Below are positions 531 through 24,406 of a stretch of 26,398 nt of DNA, one piece after another; position 1 is the first letter of the stretch; every line of letters starts with the position of its first letter. A program made the translations under genes and the position numbers. Below the pieces are notes generated by a model. It worked only from the letters and a program-made list of their open reading frames with translations. It was not told where the DNA came from and searched no databases. Where the stretch lies: IMG/VR virus record IMGVR_UViG_2534681993_000012; one strand, given 5' to 3'. Source of the stretch: a virus (lineage: Duplodnaviria > Heunggongvirae > Uroviricota > Caudoviricetes).

Positions 531-562
531 GGTACTATTACCACAACGGTAACTATTACCAC
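531..562 (+). promoter_or_regulatory. tandem direct repeats GGTA(A)CTATTACCAC x2 immediately upstream of terS; candidate late-promoter activator or packaging-recognition site
   Basis: 531-544 GGTACTATTACCAC and 548-562 GGTAACTATTACCAC. The second copy runs into the palindrome ACCACGGTGGT and the terS ribosome-binding site. Confidence 0.45.
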
Positions 563-3485: not shown

Positions 3486-3514
3486 ATTATACCTTTAAGG
3501 TAATTTGTGGTCAT
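3486..3514 (-). promoter_or_regulatory. sigma70-like promoter with embedded operator dyad for the membrane-protein gene
   Basis: Minus strand: -35 ATGACC (3514-3509), 17-bp spacer, -10 TATAAT (3491-3486). The dyad aTACCT-TTA-AGGTAA (3489-3503) lies in the spacer and overlaps the -10. Confidence 0.5.
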
Positions 3515-3545: not shown

Positions 3546-3620
3546 ACTGGAAGCAATGAGTTATGCCTTCCGTGGCTGTACTGGTTTACAGCATGAAGTC
3601 ATCGCAATGGCGTCCTGCTG

Positions 3621-4106: not shown

Positions 4107-4121
4107 TTACCTGAAAGGTAA
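4107..4121. promoter_or_regulatory. operator-like dyad TTACCT-GAA-AGGTAA (perfect arms)
   Basis: Perfect 6-3-6 inverted repeat. Lies about 320 bp 5' of the tRNA on the minus strand and about 90 bp upstream of the + strand 68-aa gene; the target promoter is ambiguous. Confidence 0.55.
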
Positions 4122-20221: not shown

Positions 20222-21127
20222 CTATATTTCCAGACACCTGTTATCACTTAACCCATTACTGGCTTGCTGCCGTAGATATTCCCGTGGCGAGCGATAACCC
20301 AGTGCACTATGCGGATGCCATTCGTTATAATGCTCGAACGCCTCTGCAAGGTTCTTTGCTGCCGTTAACCCGTCTGGTTTGGGCATGACACTGATGTAGT
20401 CACGCTTTATCGTTTTCACGAAGCTCTCTGCTATGCCGTTACTCTCCGGACTCCGCACCGCCGTGCTCTTCGGTTCAAGCCCCAACATCCGGGCAAACTG
20501 CCGTGTTTCATTAGCCCGGTAGCATGAACCATTATCCGTCAGCCACTCTACTGGAGACGCCGGAAGCTCGTTGCCGAAGCGGCGTTCCACCGCTCCCAGC
20601 ATGACGTCCTGTACTGTTTCACTGTTGAAGCCGCCCGTAGTGACCGCCCAGTGCAGTGCCTCACGGTCACAGCAGTCCAGCGCGAACGTGACTCGCAGTT
20701 TTTCTCCGTTATCACAGCGGAACTCGAACCCGTCAGAGCACCATCGCTGATTACTTTCTTTCACAGCCACTCTGCCTGTATGTGCCCGTTTCGATGGCGG
20801 TACAGCAGGTTTTCGCTCAAGCAACAGCGCATTCTGGCGCATGATCCGGTAAACACGTTTGGCATTGATCGCAGGCATACCATCAAGTTCTGCCTGTCTG
20901 CGAAGCAGCGCCCATACCCGACGATAACCATACGTGGGCAGCTCTCCGATAACATGGTGTATACGGAGAAGCACATCCGTATCATCAGTGTGACGACTGC
21001 GGCGGCCATCCATCCAGTCATCGGTTCGTCTGAGAATGACGTGCAACTGCGCACGCGACACCCGGAGACAACGGCTGACTAAGCTTACTCCCCATCCCCG
21101 GGCAATAAGGGCGCGTGCGCTATCCAC
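20222..21127 (-). CDS. insD: IS2 transposase OrfB (InsD)
   Basis: 301-aa translation [23 protein letters not shown]... recognised as IS2 InsD. Overlaps insC in the -1 frame with slippery CAAAAAAG at 21127-21134 (programmed frameshift typical of the IS3 family). Confidence 0.9.
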
Positions 21128-21450
21128 TTTTTTGCCCGTCCATATTCAACGGCTTCTTTGAGGAGTTCATTTTCCATCGTTTTCTTGCCGAGCAGGCGCT
21201 GGAGTTCTTTAATCTGCTTCATGGCGGCAGCAAGTTCAGAGGCAGGAACAACCTGTTCTCCGGCGGCGACAGCAGTAAGACTTCCTTCCTGGTATTGCTT
21301 ACGCCAGAGAAATAACTGGCTGGCTGCTACACCATGTTGCCGGGCAACGAGGGAGACCGTCATCCCTGGTTCAAAGCTCTGCTGAACAATTGCGATCTTT
21401 TCCTGTGTGGTACGCCGTCTGCGTTTCTCCGGTCCTAAGACATCAATCAT
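21085..21450 (-). CDS. insC: IS2 OrfA (InsC), HTH protein
   Basis: [25 protein letters not shown]...; ATG 21450 follows GGAGA. The ORF-track extension to 21495 lacks a ribosome-binding site. Confidence 0.85.
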
Positions 21451-21541
21451 CTGCTCTCCAATGACTAGTCTAAAAACTAGTATTAAGACTATCACTTAAA
21501 TAAGTGATACTGGTTGTCTGGAGATTCAGGGGGCCAGTCTA

Positions 21542-21546: not shown

Positions 21547-21800
21547 ATTCTGGAAGACAAAGGGCAATGCTGAAGGTGTGCTCAGCTGATGGTGGATTTT
21601 TTGTTATTGCCGATTCATCTTACAGCAAAGGACCAAAGCTGAGGATTGGTGATCTTGTTGCTTGGTTGCCTGTGAGTTATGCCGAAGAATTAACGGATAA
21701 AATAGAAGATCCTCGCTCCGCTATGGTTGGCTTTATATTGGGAACCATTCATCCTGAACTAACATCTACTGGCTGGAAGGGTAAAGAAAGATTTCGCAAG

Positions 21801-21816
21801 TAGCGTGACATGTCAC
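21801..21816. repeat. 16-bp motif TAGCGTGACATGTCAC (copy 2 of 2)
   Basis: Exact repeat of 444-459; here its first 3 nt are the stop codon of the IS2-disrupted gene and it is followed at once by a terminator. Confidence 0.7.
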
Positions 21817-22082: not shown

Positions 22083-22595
22083 CTATGCAGGCTTTTTGGA
22101 TTTGTACGAATAATCCCACGGATAAACATTTCTACTAAGTGGGGCTGTATTCGTTCGTTCATGAAATAATTTTGTGAAATTCAATACGGAATCCATCCAA
22201 ACTTTTGCGTTAGCTTTGGTGTGTGCGGGCGGGTCCCAATAAGCTAGTAAGGCTGCATCTCTTATTTCATTGACTGCATATATGAGATATGCGTTACTGG
22301 TTGGTTTTGGCCTGTAATTTCCTTGTTCATCAATCAATCCATATGACCACTCATCCCAACACTGTTCAGTACATGAGTATGAATATGATGCATATTCACC
22401 AATATTGACATGAACCTTTCTGAGATGGAAGCCTAATACTTCGTCTGGTCTTTCAAAAAGAGTATCTTTTCCCAGATCAGGATGATGACCATGACGCCAG
22501 TGTTGTTTAAAAGCATCTTTTAGCGAAATCAGAAAGTCATCAGTTTTAAACTCACCAGTAGGTATAACCTTCCCGCTATACTCACTCAAAAACAT
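22083..22595 (-). CDS. uncharacterised protein (170 aa), distal gene of a two-gene operon; His/Cys-rich segments (HWRHGHHP, CTEQCWDEW)
   Basis: ATG 22595 follows GAGGAA; the start overlaps the last 14 nt of the upstream gene (translational coupling). No family recognised by eye. Confidence 0.6.
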   Translation of the reverse strand: MFLSEYSGKVIPTGEFKTDDFLISLKDAFKQHWRHGHHPDLGKDTLFERPDEVLGFHLRKVHVNIGEYASYSYSCTEQCWDEWSYGLIDEQGNYRPKPTSNAYLIYAVNEIRDAALLAYWDPPAHTKANAKVWMDSVLNFTKLFHERTNTAPLSRNVYPWDYSYKSKKPA

Positions 22596-22908
22596 CGAAT
22601 TCCTCTTCCTTCATATGCGTTTCTAATGAGTTAAGCTGGCGGAAAGATATCTCTTTTGATTCTGCAGATGAGAGCTTTTTTATCCGCTTTATATTCTTTG
22701 TGATAGGAATAGACATTGTATGCACATCAGCGGATGCTCTTGGCTTTGTGCTGATAAAAATATGGCGCAATGCCGCATTTTCACTATTGAACGAGCCAAT
22801 AGCTGATTTACGTGCTACAACCTTACCAGTAAAAATACGACTCTTGCTACGCTTTGCATGAGTTCCGCTTCTTACCGGACCTCTCATCACGAATCCAAGT
22901 TTTGTCAT
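22582..22908 (-). CDS. uncharacterised basic protein (108 aa), proximal gene of the two-gene operon
   Basis: ATG 22908 follows GGAGA (7-nt spacer); Lys/Arg-rich N-terminal half, acidic C-terminus; operator dyad 43-57 bp upstream. Confidence 0.6.
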   Translation of the reverse strand: MTKLGFVMRGPVRSGTHAKRSKSRIFTGKVVARKSAIGSFNSENAALRHIFISTKPRASADVHTMSIPITKNIKRIKKLSSAESKEISFRQLNSLETHMKEEEFDVFE

Positions 22909-22950: not shown

Positions 22951-22965
22951 TTACCTTTAAGGTAA
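22951..22965. promoter_or_regulatory. operator-like dyad TTACCT-TTA-AGGTAA (perfect arms) upstream of the 108/170 operon
   Basis: Perfect 6-3-6 inverted repeat in the 5' region of the minus-strand operon. Confidence 0.6.
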
Positions 22966-23031: not shown

Positions 23032-23742
23032 TCAGAAGAACCCAGCCTTGTCGTTGATGTACTCCGCGTGGGTCTGGATATCACGCAGGCATTTGCTCAC
23101 ACCGACGATGTAGCAGAACATGGTGGTCAGCTCCGCCGCCGCGCCCGATACGTCGTGCCCGTCTTCCTGTAACTGGTTCAGCAGATTCATCAGCAGTGAG
23201 TGCTCCGTCAGGCCGAGAACACCAGACGGCGAATGAATCAGGCTACGGTAGCCGGGCTTCAGTGGGGCACTGTAGGTTTTGTTCTCTATCTTCATTGCCT
23301 GCATTACTGCTGACGCCGTGGCGTTGGCTACCTGGTCGGCAACCATCTTTATGCGTTCTTCCTGCGGTAGCGAGTTTTTAATGTAACTTCCGGTGCGGCG
23401 GATCTGAGGAAGAACCTCACCTGTAACCCATTTACGAAAGCGGTAGGGGATAGTGCCTGGTGTCACCGCATCGCGGCAGCGGAGGATCAGTGTGTAGAGG
23501 CCTGACTCGGAGATGATGTTGATCTCTTTTACTCGGCTGTCAAAAATTGCACGATGTTCATGCCCTATGTTGAACATAGACCTTTCATCATCATCCAGTT
23601 TTTCAAGTGCTTGGGTGACGTTTTGGATACGCAGCGCACTACAAACGTCTTGGGCTACAAACCATGGTTGGCCATCGATAATGATGGAACGGATAGGGTT
23701 AACAGATTCAAATTTGAAGATGGCAGTTTGAGCATTAGCCAT
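23032..23742 (-). CDS. phage antirepressor, BRO-N family (N-terminal Bro-N DNA-binding domain plus C-terminal Ant-like domain)
   Basis: ORF track 23032..23757 (GTG); ATG 23742 follows GGAG. N-terminus FKFESVNPIRSIIIDGQPWFVAQDVCSALRIQN is a typical Bro-N signature; the C-terminal 80 aa are homologous to the ORF at 24058-24315. Confidence 0.85.
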   Translation of the reverse strand: MANAQTAIFKFESVNPIRSIIIDGQPWFVAQDVCSALRIQNVTQALEKLDDDERSMFNIGHEHRAIFDSRVKEINIISESGLYTLILRCRDAVTPGTIPYRFRKWVTGEVLPQIRRTGSYIKNSLPQEERIKMVADQVANATASAVMQAMKIENKTYSAPLKPGYRSLIHSPSGVLGLTEHSLLMNLLNQLQEDGHDVSGAAAELTTMFCYIVGVSKCLRDIQTHAEYINDKAGFF

Positions 23743-23770
23743 GGTGGTTATCTCCACTTAGTGATTTTAA

Positions 23771-23801
23771 TCACCACCGCAACGCCAATTACTGGTGGTG
23801 A
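23771..23801 (-). promoter_or_regulatory. 5'-leader inverted repeat of the antirepressor gene (TCACCACC / GGTGGTGA, 15-nt loop) with a third ACCACC copy abutting the start codon
   Basis: Arms at 23771-23778 and 23794-23801; a GGTGGT copy at 23743-23748 lies directly beside the start codon. Alternative pairings could expose or occlude the ribosome-binding site. Confidence 0.35.
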
Positions 23802-23896
23802 ACTGGACAAGGTTGGCGTACCGGCCTAAGTGGTACCGGCGTCCTTTCGGACCCCTGCCCAGCCCACCATAATTCGGATATGGCTGTGCTTAACGC

Positions 23897-23921
23897 ATAA
23901 AAAAACCACGTCTGGCGTGGT
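23897..23921 (-). terminator. intrinsic terminator (minus strand) between the short paralogue and the antirepressor
   Basis: Minus strand reads ACCACG-CCAGA-CGTGGT then TTTTTTTA. Confidence 0.5.
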
Positions 23922-23954
23922 ATGCGCCACTTAGTAACTCGGGACGCCAATCCC

Positions 23955-23976
23955 GGCACTGGATTTTGCCAGTGCC
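23955..23976. other. stable GC-rich hairpin (8-bp stem GGCACTGG/CCAGTGCC, 6-nt loop), no U-tract
   Basis: Perfect inverted repeat within the structured intergenic region. Confidence 0.35.
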
Positions 23977-23990
23977 CGATTACTATGGCA

Positions 23991-24044
23991 CAAGAGGAGT
24001 GCGATGTAAATTTACCGCAAAGGTAAATATAAGCACTCCTCTTG
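23991..24044. promoter_or_regulatory. nested palindrome: 12-bp arms CAAGAGGAGTGC/GCACTCCTCTTG enclosing a 30-nt loop that carries the dyad TTACCg-CAA-AGGTAA (24012-24026)
   Basis: Perfect 12-bp inverted repeat, 14 nt downstream of the short paralogue's stop; the inner dyad matches the motif family with one arm mismatch. Confidence 0.5.
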
Positions 24045-24057
24045 GTAATTTCAAATC

Positions 24058-24315
24058 TTATCTGGTTTGTTTTCGTAATTGTTCGGCACAATAGTCGAGA
24101 TGTGTTTGCAGATCCCGCATAGACATCTGTGAGCTGGTGACGTAGTTAATCAGTGCAGTCAGTTCGGCAAGTGGGCCATCGACATTAAATCCATCCTTAT
24201 CGAGATCCCGGAGTAATTTCATCAAGTGCGATCCCTCCACCAGTGACCTGACGCCTCCCGGCGTGTGAATCCTTTCGGTAAATCCGTCTTCCAGTGGATA
24301 GTGATACTGCTGCAT
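24058..24315 (-). CDS. short antirepressor paralogue (85 aa) corresponding to the C-terminal domain of the adjacent BRO-N antirepressor; LexA-controlled
   Basis: ORF track 24058..24333 (TTG); ATG 24315 follows GGAGA (8-nt spacer). HTPGGVRSLVEGSHLMKLLRDLDKDGFNVDGPLAELTALINYVTSSQMSMRDLQTHLDY aligns with the antirepressor segment HSPSGVLGLTEHSLLMNLLNQLQEDGHDVSGAAAELTTMFCYIVGVSKCLRDIQTHAEY. Confidence 0.7.
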   Translation of the reverse strand: MQQYHYPLEDGFTERIHTPGGVRSLVEGSHLMKLLRDLDKDGFNVDGPLAELTALINYVTSSQMSMRDLQTHLDYCAEQLRKQTR

Positions 24316-24334
24316 CTTATCTTCTCCATGCAAT

Positions 24335-24354
24335 AACTGTATAAATATACAGTA
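24335..24354. promoter_or_regulatory. LexA (SOS) box
   Basis: AACTGTATAAATATACAGTA: CTGT-N8-ACAG with AT-rich spacer, about 18/20 to the consensus TACTGTATATATATACAGTA; sits 10 nt upstream of the ribosome-binding site of the short paralogue. Confidence 0.75.
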
Positions 24355-24391: not shown

Positions 24392-24406
24392 TCACCTGAA
24401 AGGTAA
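24392..24406. promoter_or_regulatory. operator-like dyad TcACCT-GAA-AGGTAA upstream of the LexA-controlled promoter
   Basis: 6-3-6 inverted repeat, one arm mismatch; lies in the divergent intergenic region between the short paralogue and the tailspike. Confidence 0.55.

Follow-up and report, generated by a model that had tools for sequence, protein, structure and literature searches.

The ant locus

We analyzed a 26,398-nucleotide stretch of viral DNA (IMG/VR record IMGVR_UViG_2534681993_000012; hereafter the window), and specifically two neighboring minus-strand genes: a short one that we identify as the antirepressor gene ant, and a longer one encoding a BRO-N protein whose C-terminal domain resembles Ant. 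Judged by its sequence, the window belongs to a prophage of Escherichia coli that is epsilon15/phiV10-like (Uetakevirus). The locus region is 99% identical to phage HEMP4, ~93-95% identical to phages phiV10, TL-2011b, and ZX5, and 100% identical to three E. coli chromosomes. When 5,426 complete genomes of E. coli were searched, 534 had a match to the region, and 216 of them contain the region from ant to the long antirepressor gene (at least 80% of the query). Our findings indicate that the locus very probably combines a known switch, in which the SOS response acts through Ant, with a second antirepressor that is gated by the RNAs C4 and IsrK in a manner resembling the immI region of phage P1. 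The following features were annotated or predicted, listed in the direction of transcription of the two genes:

24392..24406: putative operator palindrome of the Rep type, TCACCTGAAAGGTAA (TTACC-N5-GGTAA family), in the gap that separates ant from the divergently transcribed tailspike gene, from a palindrome scan
24335..24354: predicted LexA (SOS) box AACTGTATAAATATACAGTA in the ant promoter region, 18/20 positions matching the consensus
24058..24315 (stop codon included), minus strand: ant, 85-amino acid (aa) small antirepressor, ~87% identical to PDB 5D50_E / SPC32H Ant
24012..24026: putative Rep-type operator palindrome TTACCGCAAAGGTAA, between the two promoter-like sites of the IsrK-C4-long-antirepressor module, from a palindrome scan
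23991..24044, minus strand: hairpin/palindrome with a 12-bp stem in the ant-IsrK spacer, enclosing the operator (-28.6 kcal/mol, z = -5.3)
23982..24054, minus strand: two sigma-70-like promoter candidates, from a promoter scan
23899..23988, minus strand: IsrK-like small RNA (sRNA) / c4-a1b1 element (Rfam isrK and c4-a1b1), with an intrinsic terminator at its end
23791..23874, minus strand: C4 antisense RNA (Rfam RF01695, 66 bits, gathering score 45)
23752..23788, minus strand: leader of the long gene (48 nt) with the C4 targets, from motif matching
23032..23742, minus strand: long antirepressor, 236 aa from an ATG at 23742, with a BRO-N domain and an Ant-like C-terminal domain

The short gene and its LexA box

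The short open reading frame (ORF) extends from an ATG at 24315 to 24058 on the minus strand and encodes 85 aa; the mechanical ORF call began at a TTG and gave 91 aa (24058..24333, minus strand). A Shine-Dalgarno sequence, GGAG, is located at 24324-24327, 9 nt before the ATG. Along its entire length, the protein shares ~87% identity with chain E of PDB 5D50, 'Anti-repressor protein' (E = 1.4e-46; 83 of 85 residues matched, residues 2-84 against 3-85), the sequence of which is the translation of ant from Salmonella phage SPC32H. Pfam, NCBIfam, and PHROGs gave no named function for the protein ('unknown function' in PHROGs). Among the E. coli Uetakevirus phages it is 98-100% identical, and the dN/dS of the gene is 0.06-0.07 when compared to SPC32H and Tyrion (dS above 1.3, synonymous sites saturated). 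The gene also occupies the same slot in phiV10 and SPC32H, with the structural operon on one side and the divergent tailspike gene on the other. We therefore identify the short gene, by homology, as ant, the orthologue of SPC32H ant, and the low dN/dS together with the GGAG before the ATG support its being a real, expressed gene.

The identity of ant is not new: it is the counterpart of a characterized DNA-damage-triggered switch protein of epsilon15-like (Uetakevirus) phages. The SPC32H repressor Rep is reportedly not cleaved during the SOS response (Kim and Ryu, 2013) and is said to be inactivated instead by the small protein Ant, the promoter of which is repressed by LexA. LexA-controlled induction through this antirepressor has been reviewed with reference to that work (PMC7380047), and SPC32H Ant is a tetramer that takes apart the Rep tetramer (PMC9638917). 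A reading of the window made from the letters alone (the sequence-only reading) had proposed that the 85-aa protein may be the real SOS-triggered antirepressor, which agrees with what is already established experimentally for its orthologue, SPC32H Ant (~87% identity, with an orthologous LexA box).

The same reading placed a near-consensus LexA box, matching about 18 of 20 positions, upstream of the short ORF, and both its coordinates and its count were correct. As the criterion for a LexA box in Enterobacteria we used the form CTGT-N8-ACAG with an AT-rich spacer, close to TACTG(TA)5CAGTA, and AACTGTATAAATATACAGTA has this form. It is the sole site within 3 mismatches of TACTGTATATATATACAGTA in the 26.4-kb window, from which it differs by 2 mismatches, and a LexA-like match occurred in 0 of 100 dinucleotide-preserving shuffles of the window. 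Two further CTGT-N8-ACAG strings (at 3576 and 8119) have GC-rich spacers and lie far from the locus. Since the window contains a single LexA-like site, the BRO-N gene is left without a LexA box, as had also been proposed.

The box of the window aligns column for column with that of SPC32H. Over the ant locus, SPC32H differs from phage SPC32N at just two positions, one of which lies in the orthologous LexA box and changes C to A in the CAG half-site (ACAG to AAAG). SPC32N is a spontaneously lytic sibling, and this change fits the finding, reported by Kim and Ryu in 2013, that a single mutation in the LexA box makes Ant production constitutive and the phage lytic. The box keeps a constant distance from the ant start codon in the phages of E. 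coli, Salmonella, and Enterobacter, matching 16-18 of 20 positions. In the Klebsiella phages (records L006, L008, and L009), the LexA-like box upstream of ant is ATATGTATATATATACAGTA, with ATGT rather than CTGT as its left half-site, and control by LexA in that lineage may be reduced or changed.

Relationship between the short and long genes

We compared the short protein to its neighbor and found that it aligns gap-free with the 236-aa long protein at residues 155-228 (43% identity over 74 residues, E = 4e-16), which bears out the earlier statement that the 85-aa protein is homologous to the C-terminal part of the adjacent BRO-N protein. Both domains of the long protein could be assigned by sequence with E-values below 1e-12: residues 17-112 (23407-23694) match Pfam Bro-N (PF02498; E = 9.6e-20, 71 bits against a cut-off of 25.6), and residues 155-231 (23050-23280) match residues 3-79 of 5D50_E (E = 2e-13). 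However, the proposal that the short gene is a truncated paralogue of the long one did not hold, as the short gene is instead a complete stand-alone domain and a core gene of all 35 related phage records. Ant homologues are encoded in these 35 records, and the 36 records that encode Rep homologues are nearly all the same ones. The phages of Salmonella (SPC32H, epsilon15, SPN1S, and others) carry only the short gene, with an intrinsic terminator directly after it, and the E. coli, Klebsiella, and Enterobacter members carry the extra long gene downstream of ant. Identity of the Ant domain is 62-86% within the short clade and 55-80% within the long clade, compared to only 36-45% between them, so that the two form separate clades, and both are under purifying selection. 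From the separation of the clades, the purifying selection, and the short-only distribution in Salmonella phages, we conclude that the short gene is the complete, ancestral, stand-alone domain and not a truncated form.

When 1.84 billion representatives were searched exhaustively with a profile of the domain, just 61 Ant-domain clusters were returned, all of them Ant-like and most of them stand-alone proteins of ~86 aa. In the longer proteins, the domain is C-terminal and lies behind Bro-N, AntA, Phage_pRha, or ORF6N heads. These fused forms were found only by the exhaustive profile search, whereas a word-indexed protein search with Ant gave close stand-alone relatives only. Thus, the Ant domain looks like a portable C-terminal module. 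Phage TL-2011b (record L004 4280-5368 and 7277-8221), which also has an insertion between ant and IsrK, encodes a third Ant-domain protein, gp42 ('anti-repressor Ant'), the C-terminal 101 residues of which are 83% identical to the long protein of the window; no C4 is found in front of gp42.

The long protein is 81% identical overall to ORF4 of phage vB_EcoP_ZX5, and near-identical from residue 72 on, the Ant-like domain included. Overexpression of ZX5 ORF4 reduced lysogens from 1e9 to 1e6 (~1000-fold) and lowered rep mRNA by 75% (PMC9782041). In a search of the text of that paper, LexA and SPC32H were not mentioned and the BRO-N protein was treated as the antirepressor, and the ZX5 record labels the short ant gene 'hypothetical protein'. 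The published model of ZX5 induction is thus probably incomplete. In phiV10, the long gene is frameshifted near residue 186-192 and annotated as p23 plus p22 (record L001 3015-3685); unless this is a sequencing error, the Ant-like domain is probably not made there. E. coli phage vB_EcoP_PAS61 encodes the short ant only, together with an E. coli-type Rep (41.8%). Because the long gene is frameshifted in phiV10 and missing in PAS61, we regard it as accessory: to judge by its domains, a second antirepressor in which an ancient paralogue of Ant follows a BRO-N domain in one fused protein. We infer that the long protein acts on Rep, and binds it, via this Ant-like domain.

The IsrK and C4 elements

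The absence of a LexA box was the only thing that the sequence-only reading noted about control of the long gene, and this framing turned out to be too narrow, as we found an IsrK/a1b1 element, a terminator, a C4 RNA, and a Rep-type operator in front of it. The Rfam isrK model (RF01394) matches 23975..23899 on the minus strand with 67.2 bits (gathering score 50), and the c4-a1b1 model (RF03163) matches 23988..23936, minus strand, with 44.3 bits. Following this element, C4 presents two antisense segments: a hairpin loop, a', with the sequence CCACUUAG (23833..23826), and a single-stranded segment, b', with the sequence ACGCCAA (23819..23813). The a/b nomenclature for C4 sites reportedly goes back to Citron and Schuster (1990 and 1992). 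The leader of the long gene contains the matching targets b2, UUGGCGU (23788..23782), and a2, CUAAGUGG (23761..23754), the latter overlapping the Shine-Dalgarno sequence GGAG of the long gene (23755..23752). Complementarity is perfect between CCACUUAG and CUAAGUGG and between ACGCCAA and UUGGCGU, and each target occurs twice, once in the leader and once as a decoy copy in IsrK (UUGGCGU at 23950..23944, CUAAGUGG at 23934..23927). IsrK ends in an intrinsic terminator (stem 23921..23905 followed by a U-run), which is the sole one between ant and the long gene. From the ant stop codon as far as this IsrK terminator, a terminator scan detected no terminator-like site, and the hairpin at 23991..24044 has no U-tract and is not a canonical terminator.

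To see how these elements are conserved, we compared them to those of related phages. The pair of IsrK and C4 is present in all seven scanned relatives that have the long gene and is absent from SPC32H. Over eight loci, the C4 loops and both copies of their targets covary, giving five specificity classes as judged by motif comparison, the MAFFT alignment of the RNA module being out of register at a2. Explicit motif matching was also used in place of RNAduplex, which over-extended the pairing of whole C4 with the leader and IsrK and was uninformative. Cognate pairings span 8-9 nt for a'/a2 and 7-8 nt for b'/b2, all perfect Watson-Crick pairs apart from G-U wobble in two cases, whereas in most cross-class combinations of C4 and target, one motif or both reach only 0-7 nt. 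In every locus, a2 lies on or directly upstream of a tract that is rich in purines, resembles a Shine-Dalgarno sequence, and precedes the start codon by 8-13 nt. The C4 loop a' is CCACUUAG in the window and HEMP4, and CCUUUUAG in phiV10, TL-2011b, and ZX5, with both targets changed to match. By these motifs, the window and HEMP4 have a distinct antisense specificity within DNA that is otherwise ~93-95% identical. The proposal that C4 blocks translation of the long antirepressor and that IsrK holds decoy sites for C4 is supported by sequence and covariation.

The C4 region has been given protein labels in two phage records, 'ash family protein' in ZX5 (record L010 1779-1892) and 'similar to hypothetical protein SF0880' in phiV10 (record L001 3797-3864), which are probably mis-annotations of an RNA gene.

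Operator-like palindromes and the Rep partner

The window has 7 copies of the palindrome family TTACC-N5-GGTAA where 0.4 are expected, and SPC32H has 18 where 0.74 are expected. Three of the SPC32H copies fall in the intergenic region between rep and its divergent neighbor and another three just downstream of rep, and in HEMP4 five copies flank rep. We infer that this palindrome is the Rep operator. At the ant locus, the copy at 24392-24406 is located ~38 nt upstream of the LexA box, a position that it holds in all 10 ant loci examined, SPC32H included. The copy at 24012..24026 falls between the two promoter candidates of the cassette that comprises IsrK, C4, and the long gene, TTGAAA-17-TATATT (24054..24026) and TTTACA-17-CATAGT (24010..23982). 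The second of these would start transcription at about 23975, which is the 5' end of the IsrK model. TTTACA-N17-CATAGT is kept in 7 of 8 loci, and an operator-like palindrome lies directly upstream of its -35 hexamer in all 8. Given this operator on the cassette promoter, conserved in eight loci, the cassette is probably repressed by Rep as well as by C4.

The other copies in the window (538-552, 556-570, 3489-3503, 4107-4121, and 22951-22965) precede the terminase and portal operons and an accessory operon at 22908. This placement suggests direct control by Rep of many transcription units, among them late ones.

An SPC32H-type switch calls for a non-cleavable Rep with an N-terminal HTH domain and a tetramerizing C-terminal domain in the same phage; the rep gene itself lies outside the window. 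HEMP4 and all the E. coli relatives encode a full-length Rep homologue that is 42-43% identical to SPC32H Rep (rep coordinates used: record L012 1201-1779; SPC32H, record L005, 33742-34335). Among the phages of E. coli, Enterobacter, and Salmonella, the short Ant is 83-87% identical, although its synonymous sites are saturated, and Rep only 42-46%, so that Ant is far more constrained than its presumed partner. In the Klebsiella phages, the two have diverged to a similar extent (Ant ~60-64%, Rep ~64%).

Proposed mechanism

We propose that in the lysogen the host LexA would sit on the box overlapping the ant promoter. DNA damage would remove LexA and allow Ant to be made, and Ant would bind the non-cleavable Rep and lift it off the TTACC-N5-GGTAA operators, resulting in prophage induction. 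This order of events, from damage through loss of LexA to Ant and inactivation of Rep, is strongly supported by homology. In the E. coli, Klebsiella, and Enterobacter lineages, a cassette resembling P1 immI and the isrK region of Gifsy-1 would have been inserted downstream of ant, reading in order: an operator-overlapped promoter, IsrK/a1b1 decoys with a leaky terminator, C4, and the a2/b2 targets on the Shine-Dalgarno sequence of the long gene. Here, C4 would block translation of the long antirepressor, and the IsrK-type RNA would titrate C4 and so lift the block. The two tiers might be coupled in that loss of Rep would derepress the cassette, in that SOS-driven ant transcripts would read through the U-less hairpin into IsrK and add to the C4 decoy, or in both ways.

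Several observations weigh against this interpretation or limit how far it reaches. The Rep of the E. coli lineage is only ~42% identical to SPC32H Rep, compared to 87% for Ant, and the binding of the window Ant to its Rep is therefore an extrapolation. That LexA and Rep bind the predicted sites in this prophage is likewise presumed from homology. The sigma-70 scan (9/12 threshold) called no ant promoter at the LexA box, where TAGCAA-18-TATATT, with its -10 hexamer inside the box, is the best candidate by eye. The c4-a1b1 match falls just under its gathering score of 46.7. No icd- or orf45-like leader ORF is conserved in the loci, the only candidate being a non-conserved 20-codon TTG ORF inside C4 that has no Shine-Dalgarno sequence, so that the details of P1 and Gifsy-1 are not fully transferable. 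Between ant and the cassette, TL-2011b has a terminator and an insertion of 1.1 kb, and transcriptional coupling from the ant promoter is therefore not general. Finally, the frameshift in phiV10 indicates that the long antirepressor is dispensable in at least one viable phage.

Alternative explanations

The long BRO-N::Ant-like protein might be the effective inducer in the E. coli lineage, with the short Ant conserved as a secondary sensor that has little or no activity on the diverged Rep. This would fit the Rep of HEMP4, phiV10, and ZX5, which is ~42% identical to that of SPC32H when the short Ant is 87% identical, as well as the distribution of the long gene, which is missing from all Salmonella phages with an SPC32H-type Rep and present in most phages with a diverged Rep; overexpression of the ZX5 long protein also moves that phage towards lysis. 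However, the short ant of the E. coli lineage has a dN/dS of 0.06 and keeps its LexA box, whereas the long gene, lacking such a box, cannot sense the SOS response directly. Moreover, PAS61 pairs an E. coli-type Rep (41.8%) with the short ant only, and the long gene of phiV10 is frameshifted. We consider this explanation unlikely. The sequence-only reading had raised a different possibility, that the short protein is a modulator of the long one, which could work through mixed oligomers of the shared Ant-like domain and not through Rep. The two proteins do have this homologous domain in common (43% identity), their genes adjoin in 8 loci, and SPC32H Ant is tetrameric (PMC9638917), making hetero-oligomers conceivable. 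Yet the long gene is missing from SPC32H, epsilon15, and SPN1S, in which Ant inactivates Rep by itself and is reportedly sufficient, while the 36-45% identity between the clades points to separate lineages and argues against a co-evolving obligate pair. Modulation is thus improbable as the primary role of the short protein, and we give it very little weight.

That the short ORF is an untranslated remnant, or that the LexA box is a chance palindrome, is hardly credible. Such a view could draw only on the small size of the ORF and on the lack of a named function in Pfam, NCBIfam, and PHROGs. Against it stand the shuffled sequences, none of which contained a LexA-like site, the conservation of box and ORF over four host genera, and a dN/dS of 0.06 with saturated synonymous sites. 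In addition, the orthologous protein has been crystallized. The pseudogene remnant that had been named as a possible refutation is effectively ruled out by this conservation. We retain the interpretation in which the short Ant is the SOS-triggered antirepressor and the long gene is a second one under separate control.

Comparison with known systems

The closest known system is the Ant-Rep-LexA switch of SPC32H (Kim and Ryu, 2013, J Virol 87:11775; Kim et al., 2016, PNAS 113:E2480; PDB 5D50), with which the window shares an orthologous Ant (~87%), a LexA box at an equal distance from the start codon, the slot beside the tailspike gene, the phage genus, the Rep family (as seen in a sister genome), and the TTACC-N5-GGTAA palindromes. 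In contrast to SPC32H, ant in the window has no terminator of its own and runs into an IsrK/C4/long-antirepressor cassette that SPC32H lacks, and the cognate Rep of its lineage is only ~42% identical. The immI operon of phages P1 and P7 runs from a C1-controlled promoter through a1b1, the c4 antisense RNA, and a2b2/icd to ant. The cassette resembles it in having, in matching order, an operator-bearing promoter, upstream decoys, a C4-family RNA (RF01695), and downstream targets on the ribosome-binding site of an antirepressor gene, and also in that covariation of loops and targets defines specificity classes, as between P1 and P7. P1 Ant is controlled by C1, C4 RNA, and Icd (PMC8201110). Unlike P1, the window has no icd-like leader ORF and the target is the Shine-Dalgarno sequence of the antirepressor gene itself; the long protein is a BRO-N::Ant-like fusion unrelated to P1 Ant1/2, and the phage is a podovirus that has a separate, LexA-controlled Ant as well.

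A similar arrangement is found in the isrK-orf45-anrP region of Gifsy-1 (PMC4825925), where an IsrK-family sRNA with a leaky terminator is followed by a stable processed RNA and then by an antirepressor gene; the processed RNA, STnc1160, stands at the position of C4 in the window. In Gifsy-1, short IsrK switches on antirepressor translation in trans (Hershko-Shalev et al., 2016; PMC4825925). The two differ in that translation in Gifsy-1 is coupled through orf45, no counterpart of which is conserved in the window loci, and that the output of Gifsy-1 is AntQ toxicity. We also considered whether Gifsy-1 AnrP shares the Ant-like domain, and no Gifsy record was returned when the phage collection was queried with the short Ant or the long protein. 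Ant is reported by Kim and Ryu to be structurally distinct from LexA-controlled antirepressors such as Tum and GfoA/GfhA. Tum of phage 186 and GfoA/GfhA of Gifsy are alike in that LexA represses a small antirepressor of a non-cleavable repressor (Lemire et al., 2011; PMC3121763). They have no sequence relationship to Ant, and the Ant profile search gave only Ant-like clusters.

Neighboring genes in the window

Downstream of the long antirepressor gene lies a two-gene unit on the minus strand (22083-22908), encoding proteins of 108 aa (PHROG 5933) and 170 aa and preceded by its own operator-like palindrome (22951-22965). The 170-aa protein has a sub-threshold match to YafO_toxin, and its homologue in TL-2011b is annotated as a YafO-family toxin. 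Further along, at 20222-21495, are two overlapping minus-strand ORFs of 136 and 301 aa, which from their translations look like an IS3-family orfA/orfB transposase. A 78-aa ORF beside them (21567-21803) matches only positions 72-149 of the 149-position PHROG 9944 profile and appears to be a gene cut by the insertion.

Discussion

Our findings place the locus in a known framework, as the core system has already been described and the composite architecture is a moderate lead: an SOS-gated short Ant followed by a C4/IsrK- and operator-gated long paralogue was absent from the literature that we searched. We tentatively suggest, while judging it somewhat more likely to be wrong than right, that the locus represents a two-tier, bipartite form of immunity, previously undescribed for Uetakeviruses of E. 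coli, Klebsiella, and Enterobacter, in which a LexA-gated Ant is followed by an operator- and IsrK/C4-gated long fusion. The short Ant would sense damage and remove Rep, after which the long BRO-N::Ant would be released as an amplifier of commitment. On superinfection, the long protein might serve as an anti-immunity weapon, the reach of which would be set by the C4 specificity classes (at least five seen). If this holds true, the ant mRNA, which here meets no terminator before IsrK, would carry a C4 decoy in its 3' end, linking the SOS response directly to derepression of the long antirepressor, and the Ant domain would be a portable Rep-binding module fused to Bro-N, AntA, Rha, and ORF6N heads.

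The locus also points to a gap in annotation, given that neither Pfam nor NCBIfam offers a model for the Ant family and that RefSeq and phage records list its members as 'hypothetical protein'. More broadly, it is a convenient system in which to study why a temperate phage retains a second antirepressor, and which partners are bound by the C-terminal domains of BRO-N/AntA/Rha/ORF6N 'antirepressors'.

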